Source: Escherichia coli (lineage in GTDB: Bacteria > Pseudomonadota > Gammaproteobacteria > Enterobacterales > Enterobacteriaceae). From it: a stretch of 64,000 nt of DNA. A program made the position numbers and the translations under genes. The DNA lies in assembly GCF_041248615.1 (NCBI RefSeq), contig NZ_CP158426.1; one strand, given 5' to 3'. This document shows positions 1 to 31,124 of the stretch, piece after piece (the first letter of the stretch is position 1; each line of letters opens with the position of its first letter). The notes below the pieces were generated by a model. That model ran no database searches. It was not told the origin of the DNA and saw nothing but the letters and a program-made list of their open reading frames with translations.

Positions 1-534
1 TTCCAGCGTATCAAGGCGTTCCTGATAAGTACGTGTGGTGATGATATTGCCGTAAAACTCCGGCGAGGTGTCGAGGTTGTGGTTGTAGTAATCCAGCCCG
101 GCGTTCGCAAGGCGCTGCGCCTGAGATTCACTCAACGTACCCAGCGTCATACACGCCTCCAGGCCCATCGCTTTTACTCCCTGCACCATTTGTTCCAGGT
201 AGGGCATATCGCGTTCGTGGGGATTCTTCCACGCCGCGCCCATGCAGAAGCGCGTCGATCCTGCCGCTTTCGCTTTGCGCGCCGACTCCAGCACCTGTTC
301 AACTTCCATCAACCGCTCGGCTTCCAGCCCGGTTTTGTAGCGCGAGCTTTGCGGGCAGTATTTGCAATCTTCCGGACAAGCTCCGGTCTTAATTGACAGC
401 AAAGTGCTGACCTGCACCTGACGTGGATCGAAATGCTGACGATGCACCTGCTGCGCTTCAAACAGCAGATCCAGCAACGGTTTTTCAAATAATTCTGTGA
501 CTTGCGACAATGTCCAGCGTGGGCGGTGAGCCAT
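1..534 (-). CDS. bioB: biotin synthase, N-terminal part (gene runs off the window start)
   Basis: Reverse translation from ATG at 534 reads [20 protein letters not shown]... with a radical-SAM CxxxCxxC motif; divergent from bioA across a palindromic operator. Confidence 0.9.
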
Positions 535-3227: not shown

Positions 3228-4373
3228 ATGATATTATCATTACAATATATTAGAGGAATAGCATCATTACTTGTTGTTTTATTCCACTTCAGATTCTTGC
3301 TAAATGAGCACTACTCTCAGAAAGATTTGGGTGACCTATTATTTGGGAATGGGCTGTCTGGAGTTGATATATTCTTCATATTAAGTGGATTTATCATCGT
3401 ATACTCAACAAGAAAGAAGGAAGTTAATGATACTTTCTCATTCTCAATTAGAAGAATATTTAGAATATACCCATTACTAATCACATGCTGTTGCATGTAT
3501 TACATAATAAACACTCAATTTCTAACCTATGCTACAGTTGAAAACTTTAGAACCTTACTTATTTCCATCATTCCATTAAATATAAACTGGAATGAAGGCG
3601 CTCCATTCTTTGCCTATAATCTTTTGTACCCGGCCTGGACGATAACATATGAAATTGGTTTCTATGTTTTTTTCGGGGTATCAATGTCTATTTCGCATAA
3701 ATACAGAACAATTATCTGTTCTGTTTTTATAATCATGGTGGTCTCATTTACACAATACTATGTAAATGGAAATATATCATTTTCAGGTGATGTTAGTGCA
3801 GGGTTATTTACAGATAACTGGTTATTAGGATATACAAATGTTATTACATCTCCAATGATGTATGAATTCGTTATTGGGATGTTTCTTTCTGAAATATTTA
3901 CAAACATCAACGAAAGCAAAAGTATTAAAAGGATACTTTCAAAGTATTCGCTTCAAATACTATGGATTTCATGTGGTATATCCATAATATTATTCATTAT
4001 CCAGCGACCTTATGGGCATGGATTGAATGGATTTGGGACTATGGCGATGATACTTATTGCATCATCATTAGTATATGAATACTGCAATATAACACCCAAA
4101 ATAAAAATATTTAATTTCCTTGGTGAAATATCATATTCTTTATATCTAATTCACGCCGTGATACTTGCTTTGTTCTTCTATTATAAGGCAGACCTTGCTG
4201 AAATTGGCATAACTGGTGGATTTTCTGTGTTTTTTTCCTTGGTTATTATCTCAATAACTGCATCATATCCAATATATATTCTCATTGAAAAGCCAATGAT
4301 AAATATAGGTAAACGTTTAATTGACAAGAGAAATAAGAGCATTAACAAAAAAGAAACCGAAATAACAGCGTGA
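3228..4373 (+). CDS. integral membrane acyltransferase, family 3 (putative O-antigen/polysaccharide O-acetyltransferase)
   Basis: Very hydrophobic multi-TM protein; N-terminal R/H motif YIRGIASLLVVLFH typical of acyltransferase family 3; ATG at 3228 chosen over the track's TTG at 3198; AT-rich codon usage. Confidence 0.7.
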   Translation: MILSLQYIRGIASLLVVLFHFRFLLNEHYSQKDLGDLLFGNGLSGVDIFFILSGFIIVYSTRKKEVNDTFSFSIRRIFRIYPLLITCCCMYYIINTQFLTYATVENFRTLLISIIPLNINWNEGAPFFAYNLLYPAWTITYEIGFYVFFGVSMSISHKYRTIICSVFIIMVVSFTQYYVNGNISFSGDVSAGLFTDNWLLGYTNVITSPMMYEFVIGMFLSEIFTNINESKSIKRILSKYSLQILWISCGISIILFIIQRPYGHGLNGFGTMAMILIASSLVYEYCNITPKIKIFNFLGEISYSLYLIHAVILALFFYYKADLAEIGITGGFSVFFSLVIISITASYPIYILIEKPMINIGKRLIDKRNKSINKKETEITA

Positions 4374-25537: not shown

Positions 25538-27159
25538 CAGGCCTGTCTCCCTAGCAGCTCCCAGATGTTCAGGGCTGAATTCATTGGGGCATAGTTGATC
25601 ATCACCGAGTCGGCAAGGTTTGGCGATCGGGTTCCATCAGGCTGTTTATCAATAACGATTTTTCCCACACCATTAATGGAATAGGTCGGCTGCGAAAGCT
25701 CGATGATGAGTTTATCTTTGAGTGCCATGCTACTGCTGATTGAGATGATTTCGTCCGGGTTGTAAGCCATACCTTCAACCACGGCGCGCCAGGTATTCTG
25801 AAAAAGTTTACGTAACCGCCACCAGCTCTGGGCTTTGGCGTTAGCGAAGAAGTCCTTGTTCAGACGTGCGGCTTGCCCGTTGTCCCCGCGAACAGCTTCA
25901 TCATCTGGATCAAATACCGCGCCACTACCTCGAAACGGTGTGGCGAGTATTGACGGTCGACGCGCAACGTTACGCAGTTCGTTGATAGCGCGTGCATCGC
26001 CGCGAACGCCAGCGCCCAGCCCGTCCTCGTCAAAGCGAAACTCTTCGAGGTTGTCCTGTTCGCAAAAACCGAAAACCTTCTCGACGGACTGATAAATGTC
26101 ACTGCCCACACCGGACCATTCCCGCACATTTTCCAGGAGGAAGCCATGACGGGTGGAAAATGCATTTTTGTCCCTGCCTTCGTCGGCGACATCCATCGCG
26201 CCAAGTCGTTTGCCTGTTGGCTGGATACCCAGTTTGATATGTGCATCAACGGCAGCCTGTACCCATTCGGATGGAATCAGGACGCCTTCCGCTGATGCGC
26301 TGTAGTTCAGATCAAGTTCCTGTGCCACCACCACCGGATTATCGATTTTCTCGCATTCCCTGCGATACCACTCTTCATCCTTGCGAGGATCATCCCGCCA
26401 GTGGAATGTGAATACCGGTATCTTCCCGCCATGACGCTTCTGAGCGAACGGGTTCGCCATGCCGTTAACTGAACTCAGGTCAATACGGCAACGCGTCGTT
26501 TGTGACAACGCCGCATCAATCAGCAGAGGACGCTGAAGGAATGCAGCCTCATCAACCAGATAAAGCGTGGTACGGTCACCACGACCAATATTATCGCCAG
26601 CCTCGCCTTTGATAACGGCACCAGTTTCAGGAAACTCAACACGCATATATGGCGCGTGCTTCTTCTCGCTCCACGAACCGCGAAACTCTACAGGTAGTGT
26701 TTCCACGAACTTGCGCGCCTTCCAGAACAATGCTTTCGGGTCACCGGTGCTGTCGACGTATTCCTCTTTACGGGAGCCGAAACCGATAACCATTTCTTTG
26801 TTGAAGAGACAAAGCGAGCAGGCCAGTCCGATCGCGGTCCAACTGAGCCCCATTTCACGGGATTTTTCGGTAATACCATTCTCCCTATTGCCCCAGCGTT
26901 CCATAATCCAGTGGATCCACTCCTCCTGCTTAGGGAAGAGTAAAAACGGAATGGTCACCGGCAGGCCATAATCAATATTACGCGGGTCCGTTGTCATGCC
27001 CCAGTCGATGATGAACTGAGCCGGGTTGGTTCGGTAAAACTGTTTTAGTGCTGGCAATATTTCAGGGTTCTGGCGAATGCGCTGTAAGCGTTCCATCCGC
27101 CATTCAAAAACCATCTGGTAATCAGGATTTTTAAAATCGAAGGGGAATGGTAACGGCAT
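25537..27159 (-). CDS. terminase large subunit
   Basis: 540 aa with ATPase and nuclease-type regions; follows the small subunit. Confidence 0.8.
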
Positions 27160-27161
27160 AC

Positions 27162-27713
27162 TTAGCCCATCATTTTTCTATACGCCTCTGCAGCCTGCTC
27201 CGGCGTTAAGTTGGTAATTTCTGTTCTGACTGGTCCTCCATCAGCGCCAGTCACTTCATTTTTGACGTTGTCTTTAAACGCCTGAACAGAAACATGACGC
27301 CCAAGCAACTCAAGGTTTTTAACCTTATCAGGCCATTTGATTTTCTTCAGAAGTGCGGCGCTATCTGCGGATACCATCTCCATGACATCCATTCCTGATA
27401 GCGTTGTGCGCCATACCTTAGGCCAGTCTTTAATGGGTTTTAGATCACCGTTTTGCAGGAGAATGTCGAGCACATCCATCTGGTCGATTTCAATAAGGCG
27501 ATTAAGTACATATTCTGCATTAATACCAACAAGATCATTGCGTTGCGCTTTCAGTTCAGCGATTCTGAATTGTATGTCAGGTTTTGACAGGTTTTCGGAT
27601 GCGGTACGGTTAGCTGTCTTTGCGCTGTACCCCGCCCGAATAGCCGCTTGCGTGGCGTTTAAATCGATGAGGTACTCGCGACAGAACATTTCTTGCTTGT
27701 CGGTGAGTGCCAT
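27162..27713 (-). CDS. terminase small subunit
   Basis: Start [15 protein letters not shown]..., typical small terminase N-terminus; ATG at 27713. Confidence 0.75.
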
Positions 27714-27782
27714 TACTTTTCCTAACACTGAGGTAATTTATTCTTGGACAGTTACTACATAACTATCAATGCAATACAAATC

Positions 27783-27932
27783 ATGCTTGCGAAGAGCAAT
27801 GGTTTTTACTTGATCGCCTGGTCTAATCAAAACCGCACAGCAAGCTCGAAAGAAGAGCTTGCTCGTATTTTGGCGTCAGAATTTAGTATCACTAATCTCG
27901 AAGCTACCAACTACGTTGCCGATCTGAACTAA
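27783..27932 (+). CDS. small hypothetical ORF antisense to the late operon
   Basis: 49 codons from ATG at 27783; no recognisable motif. Confidence 0.2.
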   Translation: MLAKSNGFYLIAWSNQNRTASSKEELARILASEFSITNLEATNYVADLN

Positions 27933-28114
27933 CTTTTTTGCGGCCATCAAATCGGAACTGCTGTAGTTGATGGCCAATCATTCCTGCTAGCTAATTCGTT
28001 ACTCTGTTGTTTATTCTGCAGGTTTTTCTGTCTACTCTGCAGGTATCTTCAACGACTCATTCCAAATGGTCAGGTGGTTATTGTGCGCTGAGATGCGCGT
28101 TGAAATTCAGATGT

Positions 28115-28140
28115 GAAAAGGCCCCGCTAAAAGCGAGGCC
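28115..28140 (-). terminator. rho-independent terminator after the unknown gene downstream of Rz
   Basis: Reverse-strand hairpin GGCCTCGC-TTTTA-GCGGGGCC followed by UUUU. Confidence 0.5.
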
Positions 28141-28157
28141 ATAAATCACTTGATATC

Positions 28158-28532
28158 TTACTGAGAACGCTGGAGTAATCCGCGCTGAGCGAGAACTAGA
28201 ACAATGTCATAAGACCCTTGCCTGTCTTTATAGCAAGTTTTATCAACTAACTCAGCTTTGCTAATTCCGGGTAAATCAAGAATCAGATTCGCAACTTCAA
28301 TTGCCCTTTGGTACAACTTACCGATCTTTTTCTCCCCATGATGTGGTTTTACATTCTTCAGATAACCGCTATCCGCCAGAGCGAGAAACGTTGCCCTTGG
28401 GCATCCCTTCTTTCTTGCCGATTCGCTTTCTGTAACCTCAGCGACAGCAGCATCCCATGCATCACGCGGGGATATTGAATTATCAGCAACCAAATAATAA
28501 GCAATTAAAGCGGCGCGCGCGTATTGAGACAT
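28158..28532 (-). CDS. hypothetical protein between the lysis cassette and terminase genes
   Basis: 124 codons from ATG at 28532 (MSQYARAALIAYYLV...); lower G+C by eye; own terminator. Confidence 0.5.
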   Translation of the reverse strand: MSQYARAALIAYYLVADNSISPRDAWDAAVAEVTESESARKKGCPRATFLALADSGYLKNVKPHHGEKKIGKLYQRAIEVANLILDLPGISKAELVDKTCYKDRQGSYDIVLVLAQRGLLQRSQ

Positions 28533-28570
28533 AATGCATCCATATACAAAAATCTTATGATAAGACTTTT

Positions 28571-29014
28571 CTAATATGAACACTGTGATCTCACATACTC
28601 TTGCAGGCCATTCAATTGGTTAGTTATGGTTTCGATGCGCTCTCTGAGAACGAAATAATCCCGTTGAGCGGTGTCAGTAAGTCTGGGGCTGGCGCCATCA
28701 TCCACGCCGGAGGCGGCGGTGGTTTTATGCATGTCCGGACAGACTGCTTTGACGCGCAGCCACTTACGACCAGCAGAAACATCAGCACGAATACTTTCGA
28801 TAGTCGCGTTAGCATCAGCAAGCTCCTTTGTGTATCTGGCGTCGAGTTCTGCTACATCACGTTGACGCTTCTGCATGTCAGCGATGATGTACGTGGCTTT
28901 ATCGCGCTGTTCTTTATAGGTAATGGCGTTATCACGGTAATGATTAACAGCCCATGACAGACAGACGATGATGCAGATAACCAGAGCGGAGATAATCGCG
29001 GTTAACCTGCTCAT
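28571..29014 (-). CDS. Rz: i-spanin Rz
   Basis: N-terminal TM segment then coiled-coil periplasmic domain; overlaps endolysin stop. Confidence 0.75.
28624..28821 (-). CDS. Rz1: o-spanin Rz1 lipoprotein, nested in the +1 frame of Rz
   Basis: Lipobox LLVVSGC and proline-rich mature region [11 protein letters not shown]. Confidence 0.7.
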
Positions 29015-29508
29015 TGCTGCCCCCACAAACAGACTTCACGCTCAATCTCACGGCGAGTCATCAGCCCTTTCCATTGCTTACCGCCAGCGTATGTCCAGCG
29101 ACGTAGCTGGTCACATGCGCCTTTGATATCGCCCTGGTTTATTTTGCGAAGAAGCGTCGATGTTCTGAAATTGCCAGCACCCACGTTGTAGACGAACGAG
29201 TAAAGAGCGCCGCGCGTTGTTTCCGGTATATCGACTTTGATGTACGGGTTAATTTGTCTGGCGACCGTGGCAAGGTCTTTATTCAGGAGGGCTTTGCATT
29301 CTGCTTCGGTATACGTTTTACCGGGAATGATGTCTTTTCCTGTATGCCCGTGACATACAGTCCATACGCCAACGATATCTTTGTATGGTATGTAGCTGAC
29401 ACCTTCCAGACCATCGTTACCACCTGGACCAGTGATTAACACTGATGCTATAGCAATAGCCCCGCCACCAATAGCAGCTGCAACAGCTTTTCGTAATGAT
29501 GGAGGCAT
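29011..29508 (-). CDS. R: SAR endolysin (lysozyme), phage 21 R-like
   Basis: 165 aa; N-terminal Gly/Ala-rich signal-anchor-release segment [20 protein letters not shown] then lysozyme domain. Confidence 0.85.
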
Positions 29509-29723
29509 TATTCACCTCTCGCAGCCTTTCTTCTGTCTTCTCTGATTTTGAAGTACAGATTTGTCAGATAAGTCAAAAAGCCCAGAACTAGACTTCCCAG
29601 CACACCAATTGCAGCCCACTGTGACGGACTGACCTGATCCAACCACTGTAAAAACCAGTATCCCGCACTACCAGCGGATGTTCCGTAGGCAATGCCAGTA
29701 GAGATTTTGTCCATTGATTTCAT
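29508..29723 (-). CDS. S: pinholin/antiholin S with dual start, phage 21 S-like
   Basis: 71 aa [29 protein letters not shown]... with two TM segments and Met1/Met4 dual-start motif. Confidence 0.85.
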
Positions 29724-29841
29724 AGCAACGCCTCCGCAAGTAACGGATTGCGTAGTTCTTATATTGGGAAGGGGAAAAAAGAAGGCCGCGGCATAACTAT
29801 CACTGATGAGTTCAGGATAGCCAGTGGCTACGGCTCAGTTA

Positions 29842-29917
29842 TGGTGCTGGTTAACGGACTTGAACCGCTACCCATTCGCTTACAAGGCGACTGCTCTACC
29901 ATTGGAGCTAAACCAGC
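29842..29917 (-). tRNA. tRNA-like gene, anticodon UGU (Thr) by manual folding
   Basis: 76-nt cloverleaf: acceptor GCTGGTT/AACCAGC, D arm GCTC-CAATGGTA-GAGC, anticodon loop CTTGTAA (U33, A37), T arm AGCGG-TTCAAGT-CCGTT, 3' ACCA; one anticodon-stem mismatch. Confidence 0.55.
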
Positions 29918-29922
29918 ATGTT

Positions 29923-29997
29923 TGGCGGGACAGCGTGGACTCGAACCACGATAAGAAGGTTAACAGCCTTCCGTAATGACCTTTATACGACTGACCC
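29923..29997 (-). tRNA. tRNA-like gene, anticodon GUU (Asn), possibly degenerate
   Basis: Anticodon arm GAAGG-CTGTTAA-CCTTC and T arm CGTGG-TTCGAGT-CCACG are perfect; acceptor stem has one mismatch and the D stem is short. Confidence 0.45.
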
Positions 29998-30001
29998 AAA
30001 T

Positions 30002-30043
30002 AAAAAAAGCCACCGTTGCAACTTAAGAGTCACTAACGGCAGC
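30002..30043 (-). terminator. tR'-like terminator downstream of Q
   Basis: Reverse-strand hairpin followed by U7 just upstream of the tRNA genes. Confidence 0.45.
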
Positions 30044-30088
30044 TTATGCCAATAGTGTTGCTCATTTGCTCAATGATGTCAACACGTT

Positions 30089-30577
30089 CTATGCTACATG
30101 TTTAATTTTCTCTACACGTTTCCGATTTTTAAACGCACTATCCAGAACCGGGTAAATCATAAACAACGAGGCATTAAGGATTTCGTCAACTTCCCGTCGA
30201 CAGGTTGCGAGCGATGGTTTTTGAATGCGCCCGCCGCCACGGCATAACATCTTGCGAGGTCTTGCGACGCGATGATAGTAAGATGCAATGGCGTGCTTGG
30301 AAGAGCCATGAGCGTAGTAGCTGAGGAGGATTCCAAAGGCTTTCTTGTCAATGTACATGACGGAATCGACGACCTGAGAAATCAACATTCCATCATCATC
30401 ATTACACATTGGCCTTGTCATAACTCTTCCCGGCTCTACGCTCTCCATGAACTTCGCTATTACGCTGCTCATGCGCTTTTCCAGACGACCTGAATAAACC
30501 CATGCGCCCCACAGTTCAAGCCAGCCATTCAGCCACTCATGCTGTTCTTTGGTGAGGTTTAGTTCTCTTATGCCCAC
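30089..30577 (-). CDS. Q: late gene antiterminator Q (non-lambda type)
   Basis: 162 aa, GTG start at 30577; Cys-containing C-terminal region; occupies the Q position between nin genes and the lysis cassette. Confidence 0.65.
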
Positions 30578-31124
30578 GCGCCTTCTCCCTGTACCTGAAT
30601 CAATGTGAGATTTCCGCAGAACACTGCCCCAGTATCGATATACATCTGGTTGGCAAATTTGAGTGGTTTCACTGCTGGCGTATGACCAAAGATAAACGTG
30701 TCCGCGCCTTTAATTTCTTTAACGATCCCGTCTTGTGAGTTGCTGATTCGTTCGCGGTTCCAGATTACCTGCTGATGATCAACTGGCTTTCCAAATTCGT
30801 ATTCGTCACAAGGATAATCGGCGTGGCAGATGACATATTTTTTACCTTTGCTCACCAGTTCGATGATTAACGGAAGTTCTTCTGCTTTATGGGCAAGAGC
30901 TTTAGCCAGAATTTCTTTGTCGTAATCGAGATTAAAGAACCAGCCACCGCCATTAAGCAGCCAGTGATTAACGTTTCCACGCTCTGATAAGCCATCAATC
31001 ATCATTTGTTGTCGAATCCAATCGTATCCAGTTTGTTCATAAGGTTCGTGTAGCATCCGTGCAGATCGCCAACCACCCAAATATTTCGGTATTTGCTGCC
31101 ATCAATTCTTTCGTAGATATTCAT
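30568..31124 (-). pseudogene. ninI: ninI (lambda Ser/Thr phosphatase) disrupted by an internal deletion and frameshift
   Basis: N-terminal 40 codons ([40 protein letters not shown]) end at TGA 31002..31004; the C-terminal 160 aa ([15 protein letters not shown]...) lie in another frame; the GDxVDRG and GNHE motif region is absent. Confidence 0.6.

Follow-up and report, generated by a model that had tools for sequence, protein, structure and literature searches.

Optional DUF6979 cargo and a conserved antisense gene, orf62, between the lysis and packaging modules of a lambdoid Escherichia coli prophage

The window analysed here is a stretch of 64,000 nucleotides (nt) of Escherichia coli DNA (contig NZ_CP158426.1), and the subject of this work is the segment of its lambdoid prophage that lies between the spanin genes, Rz with Rz1 inside it, and the terminase gene terS. 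On the strand of the late genes this segment contains a 124-codon gene of the DUF6979 family, an intrinsic-terminator-like hairpin and a gap that reaches to the terS start codon, in which a second gene, orf62, is encoded on the opposite strand (Table 1). The prophage is integrated beside ybhC, and the query stretch is 100% identical to the corresponding sequences of NZ_LT599825 and NZ_CM136170. The 124-codon gene had been reported directly after the spanin genes by the first-pass annotation, which was made from the sequence of the window; it is indeed a real gene, and begins 38 nt after the Rz stop codon.

The product of this gene, which had at first been left without a family, is a full-length match to Pfam DUF6979 (PF22399; E 1e-29, residues 1–121 on model positions 1–127 of 127) and also matches phrog_5039 (PHROG 5039, ‘unknown function’; E 2.5e-67). 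The identical protein in RefSeq is already named ‘DUF6979 family protein’ by the Prokaryotic Genome Annotation Pipeline (PGAP). The gene is a member of an already catalogued, uncharacterised family. Among 1.84 billion representative sequences, 311 clusters of relatives were found, nearly all of them stand-alone proteins of 120–140 amino acids (aa). All 55 diverse members that were aligned match Pfam DUF6979, and they share one invariant residue, Cys44, within the motif S-x-S-S-R-K-K-G-C-P-R (KKGCPR). Among the prophages, 23 distinct alleles are all intact, each retaining Cys44, with a median ratio of nonsynonymous to synonymous substitution rates (dN/dS) of 0.23.

The AlphaFold2 model of the protein is of high confidence (predicted local distance difference test score, pLDDT, 95.2; predicted template modelling score, pTM, 0.89) and consists of seven helices arranged as two three-helix halves that resemble helix-turn-helix (HTH) domains. 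According to the model and the alignment, Cys44 is located at the start of the first ‘recognition’ helix. Neither a signal peptide nor a membrane segment was seen in the protein sequence, and we predict a small cytoplasmic protein whose fold suggests binding to nucleic acid. Foldseek comparison of the model with the AlphaFold database (AFDB) returned only uncharacterised family members and no solved homologue. Two of 50 AFDB neighbours bear HARE-HTH or Mrr_N labels; membership in these families was rejected, as none of the 55 members matches the respective Pfam models even at E 0.1. A relationship to O6-alkylguanine-DNA alkyltransferases (MGMT/Ogt, PCHR site) was likewise discarded: a match to an archaeal alkyltransferase (E 0.08) was obtained from a single sequence only, vanished with the family profile and lacks support from the fold. 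Function calls by NCBIfam and PHROG gave nothing useful for this protein or for the orf62 product. Comparisons with Pfam, PHROG and NCBIfam revealed no homology to lysis or packaging proteins; such homology would have refuted the reading of the first-pass annotation.

The distribution of the gene is patchy. Of 5426 complete E. coli genomes, 247 contain its DNA, always as a single copy, and only seven cultured phages, all lambdoid, carry it (4A7, Lambda_4C10, D2, 1W, 3W, mEp460_4F5 and SfI). Two viral contigs, L026 and L027, are near-isogenic to the window and lack the gene, the sequences on either side of it being 99.2% and 97.4% identical to the window in L026 and 97.2% and 91.2% in L027. In both contigs, 628 nt of the window (28128–28755, comprising the terminator stem, the DUF6979 gene and the 3' part of Rz) correspond to 221 nt that hold an alternative Rz end followed directly by the terminator. 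Among the viral-contig loci, 38 of 45 have the DUF6979 gene exactly 38 nt behind the same type of Rz, whatever the type of endolysin. By these comparisons, the gene is optional cargo in a variable slot between lysis and packaging genes. We propose that it arrived along with the 3' part of one Rz variant and so came to lie between the spanin genes and the terminator that closes the lysis cassette. In L076 (3016–5804), a truncated copy (residues 35–124) lies directly behind a truncated lysozyme gene; downstream of it there are ORFs (open reading frames) with signal-peptide-like starts, one of which (MKKLILLTLIIASFDIYAIDFVYRVDPNPPDVIFRDGF…) looks like a pertussis-like ADP-ribosyltransferase toxin subunit. 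In the lambda-like phage 4A7 (L018), two small annotated ORFs (409–591 and 3–197, plus strand) are found beyond the DUF6979 gene and its terminator, on the strand opposite to the gene and near the right end of the genome.

The same comparisons bear on the possibility that the DUF6979 protein is an accessory of lysis or packaging that cooperates with the spanins or the terminase, perhaps by timing lysis or by handling DNA ahead of packaging. Such a role would agree with the probable late expression of the gene and with its position directly behind spanin genes, which are of two or more unrelated types. The copies in L077 and L082 (45–55% identity) follow unrelated spanins and endolysins. However, the near-isogenic phages and ES18 do without the gene, and it accompanies three different packaging modules: a lambda-like cos module, the HNH plus terminase module of SfI, and the Terminase_2 type of the window. 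Other phages carry it elsewhere: among further copies of 45–55% identity, L080 has it in the nin region, where the ORFs nearby resemble Rha, GIY-YIG, NinG and Q, and in L081 it lies between Q plus a DNA methyltransferase gene and the lysis genes. The neighbours of these four copies are tentatively named from their translations. The majority of the family, moreover, belongs to non-phage bacterial and archaeal DNA, and the product has neither of the export or membrane features mentioned above. We consider a lysis or packaging role very unlikely.

The hairpin downstream of the gene, GGCCUCGCU-UUU-AGCGGGGCC, has a 9-bp G+C-rich stem and a 3-nt loop and begins 17 nt after the DUF6979 stop codon. 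Its folded segment reaches -26.7 kcal/mol (z = -4.3), and none of 200 shuffled sequences folds as well. The reverse-strand terminator of the first-pass annotation is thereby borne out as far as the stem-loop is concerned, with the reservation that the U-tract of the window has only four U; it was missed by the consensus terminator scan, which demands at least five T. The tracts of relatives have five or six U, most of them carrying GGGGCUUUUUCA. The notion that the gene has a terminator of its own did not survive the comparison with relatives. In ES18 a ‘terminator, putative’ is annotated directly after Rz and aligns with the sequence behind the DUF6979 gene of the window, and the hairpin together with about 70 nt downstream of it is present without the gene in ES18, L026 and L027. 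Because these three have the same terminator immediately after Rz, the gene would have been inserted upstream of a pre-existing terminator, and the hairpin appears to be the terminator of the lysis cassette and older than the insertion. The ORF-free block of about 70 nt, which has matches in about 390 E. coli genomes, is by this evidence apparently a module-boundary sequence common to many lambdoid prophages.

With respect to expression, the consensus promoter scan found no sigma-70-like site of at least 9/12 matches on the minus strand upstream of the gene. A relaxed scan gave a single 8/12 candidate, TTCATA-17-TAAGAT (28580–28552), which ends 20 nt upstream of the ATG and in which the -10 A is replaced by G or T in a clade of 83% identity. 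The palindrome TCTTATGATAAGA in the spacer between Rz and the gene was considered as an operator or RNA element and rejected, its substitutions being one-sided and uncompensated. Because the gene shares its strand with Rz, follows it after a short spacer and lacks a recognisable promoter, co-transcription with the late operon is the simplest arrangement, and the gene is most likely transcribed with the Q-antiterminated late genes. The alternative is a classic moron, that is, a gene with its own promoter and terminator that is expressed in the repressed prophage and confers a lysogen phenotype such as phage exclusion or serum resistance, similar to bor. Its optional presence among near-isogenic phages, the strong hairpin behind it, the occurrence of its relatives in defence islands and the one weak promoter candidate would all suit a moron; furthermore, in lambdoid late transcription a terminator is ignored by Q-modified polymerase and matters only for Q-independent transcripts. 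However, the orientation and the 38-nt distance from Rz, the lack of conservation of the only promoter candidate, the existence of the terminator in phages without the gene, and the absence of any PADLOC match argue the other way, and we regard a classic moron as unlikely. Of the moron slot proposed at first, the optional insertion between lysis and packaging genes is thus retained; a promoter was not found, and the terminator was not acquired with the gene.

For the wider family, one genome per GTDB species was scanned with a strict motif, which yielded 140 matches ranging from Firmicutes to Thermoplasmata and 74 usable loci. There is no universal partner gene among these loci, which fits a mobile single gene. 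In at least 15 of the 74 loci the DUF6979 gene adjoins defence genes, a count that is a biased lower bound, since it comes from 30 annotated neighbour proteins picked for their size or tight spacing and has no matched random control. HsdM was found within four ORFs on either side in seven of the 74 loci and HsdS in five; if a genome has a few thousand genes and roughly a single type I system, HsdM should, by a rough estimate, occur so close by chance in well under one of the 74. Directly adjacent neighbours on the same strand include a type IIG restriction-modification enzyme (E 1e-255), PDC-S14 twice (E 1e-106 or better), McrB/McrC pairs (Pfam McrBC, E 7e-60), a ZorE-like HNH protein, HsdR, DpdE/ZorD-type helicases, an Orf5/HEC-06 protein and AbiV. 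At one locus the gene is flanked by a TIR protein (PDC-S35, E 1e-81) on one side and a SIR2 protein on the other, and a 476-aa DUF6979 fusion is surrounded by bacteriophage exclusion (BREX) and McrBC genes.

Two of these associations recur (Table 1). A SIR2-like protein of about 350 aa is encoded within 30 nt downstream of the DUF6979 gene in three very divergent loci, two of them (L086 and L100) from Paenibacillus. The SIR2 proteins of these loci are barely alignable among themselves, and the persistence of the pairing in spite of this suggests a functional pair; DUF6979 plus SIR2-like may be an undescribed two-gene system. In four independent loci the DUF6979 gene or its fusion lies just upstream of genes for an McrB-like AAA+ protein and McrC; upstream of DUF6979 there is a ZorE-like HNH protein in L149 and a type IIG restriction-modification enzyme in L088. 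Tight same-strand coupling to many unrelated neighbours is also seen with generic regulators of defence islands, and the DUF6979 protein could be a plain transcription regulator comparable to restriction-modification controllers or BrxR that tunes an adjoining gene, which in the phage would be the late genes or orf62. However, no conserved operator-like repeat was found near the phage gene, its sole palindrome not being maintained; a simple repressor leaves the invariant cysteine and the basic loop unexplained; no dimerisation element is evident; and many copies of the gene have no co-oriented neighbour. A plain regulator is, in our assessment, distinctly improbable.

The gap between the DUF6979 gene and terS, previously described as some 430 bp of largely non-coding sequence with a 49-codon plus-strand ORF, measures 444 nt and holds an ORF that is in fact 62 codons long and under selection. 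It starts with TTG in the window, where distant relatives have an ATG in the same place. Homologues with 63–98% amino acid identity were identified in E. coli, Klebsiella, Cronobacter and metagenomes, and the family, which is confined to Enterobacteriaceae and carries no annotation, comprises only 17 clusters. In ten distinct DNA versions, 30 first, 18 second and 50 third codon positions vary, and the median dN/dS is 0.11. Of the 186 nt compared between the window and L028, 26 are different, but only two residues are affected (proportions of synonymous and nonsynonymous differences, pS and pN, 0.61 and 0.014), and the other frames over orf62 give values above 1 except for the antisense-echo frame that shares third positions (0.23). 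Of 21 copies, 20 are uninterrupted, each with exactly 62 codons; the remaining one, in L038 (3001–3186), has an in-frame stop, a sign of ongoing decay at the junction. A late-strand ORF antisense to orf62 was considered as the true gene and rejected, as it stops at different places depending on the lineage. The AlphaFold2 model of the orf62 product (pLDDT 94.5) has four beta strands followed by two helices, and a soluble protein is predicted. The model has no informative match in the PDB.

By these data, orf62 is a real gene under strong purifying selection. That it is a chance ORF, whose conservation derives from an RNA or DNA element and not from a protein, might be supposed from the lack of any Pfam, PHROG, NCBIfam or PADLOC family (the last at E <=0.1), from the TTG start of the window lineage, from the promoter search described below and from its omission in most annotations, PGAP calling a 49-aa version in one genome only. 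Against this, dN/dS is low with synonymous change saturated between lineages, the length is fixed with ATG in distant relatives, the antisense frames are interrupted at varying places, the fold is confident, and a stop occurs in a single copy. We give a chance ORF hardly any credence. A perfect 9-bp hairpin with a T-run inside orf62 (27839–27873) was picked out as resembling a terminator. In relatives it is weak or lacking, and it is probably a lineage-specific accident.

The orf62 gene is divergent from terS, and lies about 30 nt from a Terminase_2-type terS start in every locus, the spacing being the same in 12 of 12 distinct upstream sequences. It is also the same in the Cronobacter prophage L021, which has a different terL and portal. 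The best explanation is that orf62 belongs to the terS module and constitutes a second accessory gene. The first ~87 nt of terS (27627–27713) are almost invariant in DNA, synonymous sites included: the window and L021 have three differences here and differ at 30% of sites in orf62. In L036, this 5' segment stays joined to orf62 although the rest of terS has been replaced. This invariance may mark a junction left by recombination or a signal for orf62 that is embedded in terS. Phage P22 (L085, AB362338) contains an unannotated relic of a Terminase_2-type terS start at about 880–1000, between ORF25 and ORF80, which is decayed and is 95% identical over 81 nt to window 27632–27712. Directly upstream of this relic and divergent from it, the opposite strand of P22 (about 1010–1275) has an unannotated ORF of ~87 codons (MSDIEQKIAHLEDIIEKMQ…), preceded by a good ribosome-binding site. 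The small gene that occupies the antisense slot before Terminase_2-type terS may thus differ from phage to phage.

The remainder of the gap consists of smaller elements. The stem-loop that follows orf62 keeps its stem in 10 of 10 lineages despite differing loops, with two compensatory pairs. The start of a late-strand mini-ORF overlaps it, the ATG of relatives being ATT in the window (27993–27995). Next to it is the decayed 3' end of a late-strand gene of 66–72 codons, intact in L031, L032 and L021, where the tail reads …PEEQTEQPAEQTTE*; the window reads PAE*TEKPAE*TTE*. Another sign of ongoing decay at the junction is the frameshift in the ~72-codon late-strand gene of L030 (about 3300–3520). 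Direct repeats of 16 nt (28008–28023 and 28029–28044) were considered as protein-binding or pac sites and rejected; they are decayed codons of the repeated PEEQT tail. On these sequence comparisons, the gap is best explained as a mosaic scar made up of the terminator, the boundary block, the decayed ends of two late-strand genes and an intact orf62.

Table 1. Features of the lysis–packaging junction in the window, with recurrent DUF6979 gene pairings at other loci
Feature	Position	Strand	Evidence or remarks
terS, Terminase_2 type	27162–27713	-	phrog_51 E 1e-51; PGAP start; terL and portal after terS
Gap from DUF6979 gene to terS ATG (27713), 444 nt	27714–28157		sequence
Divergent spacer, terS start to orf62 start, 30 nt	27714–27743		ribosome-binding sites AGGA for terS, GAGG for orf62
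orf62, 62 codons, antisense to late operon	27744–27932	+	homologues, dN/dS, AlphaFold2
Conserved stem-loop, 10 nt after orf62 stop	arms 27942–27950 and 27967–27975		fold
Decayed late-strand mini-ORF start, overlapping stem-loop	within 27942–27995	late strand	MSKPDWEAIE… in relatives
Decayed 3' end of late-strand gene	27999–28050	-	six-frame comparison with L031, L032, L021
Conserved ~70-nt block, ORF-free	28042–28115	-	matches in ES18, HK620, Ss-VASD
Intrinsic-terminator-like hairpin + UUUU	28116–28140	-	stem-loop 28120–28140, UUUU 28116–28119
DUF6979 gene, 124 codons	28158–28532	-	ATG 28530–28532, stop 28158–28160; Pfam, PHROG
Spacer, Rz stop to DUF6979 start, 38 nt	28533–28570	-	weak GGA ribosome-binding site; palindrome TCTTATGATAAGA
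Rz, with Rz1 inside	28571–29026	-	late gene
Lysozyme	29011–29508	-	late gene
Holin	29508–29723	-	late gene
tRNA-Asn + tRNA-Thr	29845–29997	-	Rfam
Q	30089–30577	-	late gene
DUF6979 + SIR2-like pair	L007 1973–3434; L086 7962–9436; L100 8001–9476		
DUF6979 + McrB/McrC	L149 7163–12824; L088 5047–14318; L112; L004 6001–10502		

In the surroundings of the junction, an Rfam scan of 27000–30200 identified the two tRNAs only, besides a chance microRNA match at E 0.99. Further upstream, a phosphatase gene between NinG and Q (window 30568–31124) appears in the window as two ORFs of 40 and 170 codons, and on the identical prophage (L003 22969–23525 and 25510–25789) PGAP treats the phosphatase gene and ren as frameshifted pseudogenes.

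Taken together, we propose that the DUF6979 gene would be read with the late Q-antiterminated operon, that the two HTH-like halves of its product would bind nucleic acid, and that its role would be in phage–host or phage–phage conflict, as an accessory that serves defence by DNA sensing or regulation, or as its antagonist, and not in lysis or packaging. A conflict role is suggested because the family is scattered over Bacteria and Archaea as a mobile single gene and is found repeatedly beside restriction-modification, McrBC, Zorya-like, AbiV and SIR2 genes. As a whole, this reading, with optional and late-transcribed DUF6979 cargo in a conflict role next to a mosaic gap that contains orf62, is the one that we favour, with confidence somewhat above even. 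A number of points weigh against it. Besides the bias of the neighbour count, several family members sit among housekeeping genes, and the DUF6979 protein matches no defence model of PADLOC-DB v2 at E <=0.1. DNA binding is predicted from the fold only, and a literature search for DUF6979 or PF22399 returned no paper and no experiment on any member of the family. Late expression is deduced only from the lack of a promoter consensus, and a non-consensus or activator-dependent promoter is possible. For orf62, a search of the window, L028 and L021 found no promoter, and no canonical terminator was found.

A more far-reaching version, which we put forward tentatively and consider rather doubtful, is that DUF6979 is the nucleic-acid sensor of undescribed modular defence systems with swappable effectors of SIR2-like, HNH and McrBC type. 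The solo copy of lambdoid phages would in that case be a stand-alone exclusion factor or a decoy that jams the host version, and the cysteine would be central to sensing, for example through a covalent or redox-sensitive contact with modified DNA.

It should be noted that the DUF6979 gene, an already catalogued DUF member, is a routine instance of cargo at a junction known to vary among lambdoid phages. The family is at the same time a cheap and testable candidate for a new component of conflict systems, because it is found, repeatedly and across phyla, in tight linkage with restriction-type and SIR2 genes and has a confident fold without a solved relative and an invariant cysteine. As a strongly selected gene that is nonetheless missing from almost all annotations, orf62 shows that accessory genes can be encoded antisense in ‘intergenic’ DNA before terS. 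Among the leads, this overlooked gene and the defence-island association of DUF6979, in which SIR2 and McrBC partners recur, are the most useful.

Among known systems, the closest are the catalogued relatives themselves: the window protein has the same size (~125 aa) and the same invariant cysteine as Pfam DUF6979 and PHROG 5039, and no difference from them was found. Similar to ES18 and P22-like phages, the prophage has a putative terminator of homologous sequence in the same position at the end of the lysis cassette, whereas in the window a 375-nt gene lies between Rz and this terminator. The DUF6979 gene resembles bor of lambda and rha of P22 and ES18 in being an optional accessory gene and in occupying the variable slot with which the lysis cassette ends. 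The bor gene encodes a lipoprotein that lysogens express, and is read from the opposite strand by a promoter of its own; in contrast, the DUF6979 gene points in the same direction as the late operon, lacks any recognisable promoter and has a predicted cytoplasmic, HTH-like product. Finally, small winged-helix DNA sensors and regulators of defence islands (the N-terminal domain of Mrr and HARE-HTH, BrxR and restriction-modification controllers) share with DUF6979 a small HTH-type fold that adjoins, or is fused with, restriction-type genes, which for DUF6979 are McrBC, type I and type IIG restriction-modification and BREX genes. HARE-HTH domains have been proposed to be readers of DNA modification (PMC11037411, PMC12839542). 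The tandem arrangement of two HTH-like halves and the invariant cysteine, which have no counterpart in the Mrr_N/HARE-HTH, BrxR and controller families, set DUF6979 apart from all of them.

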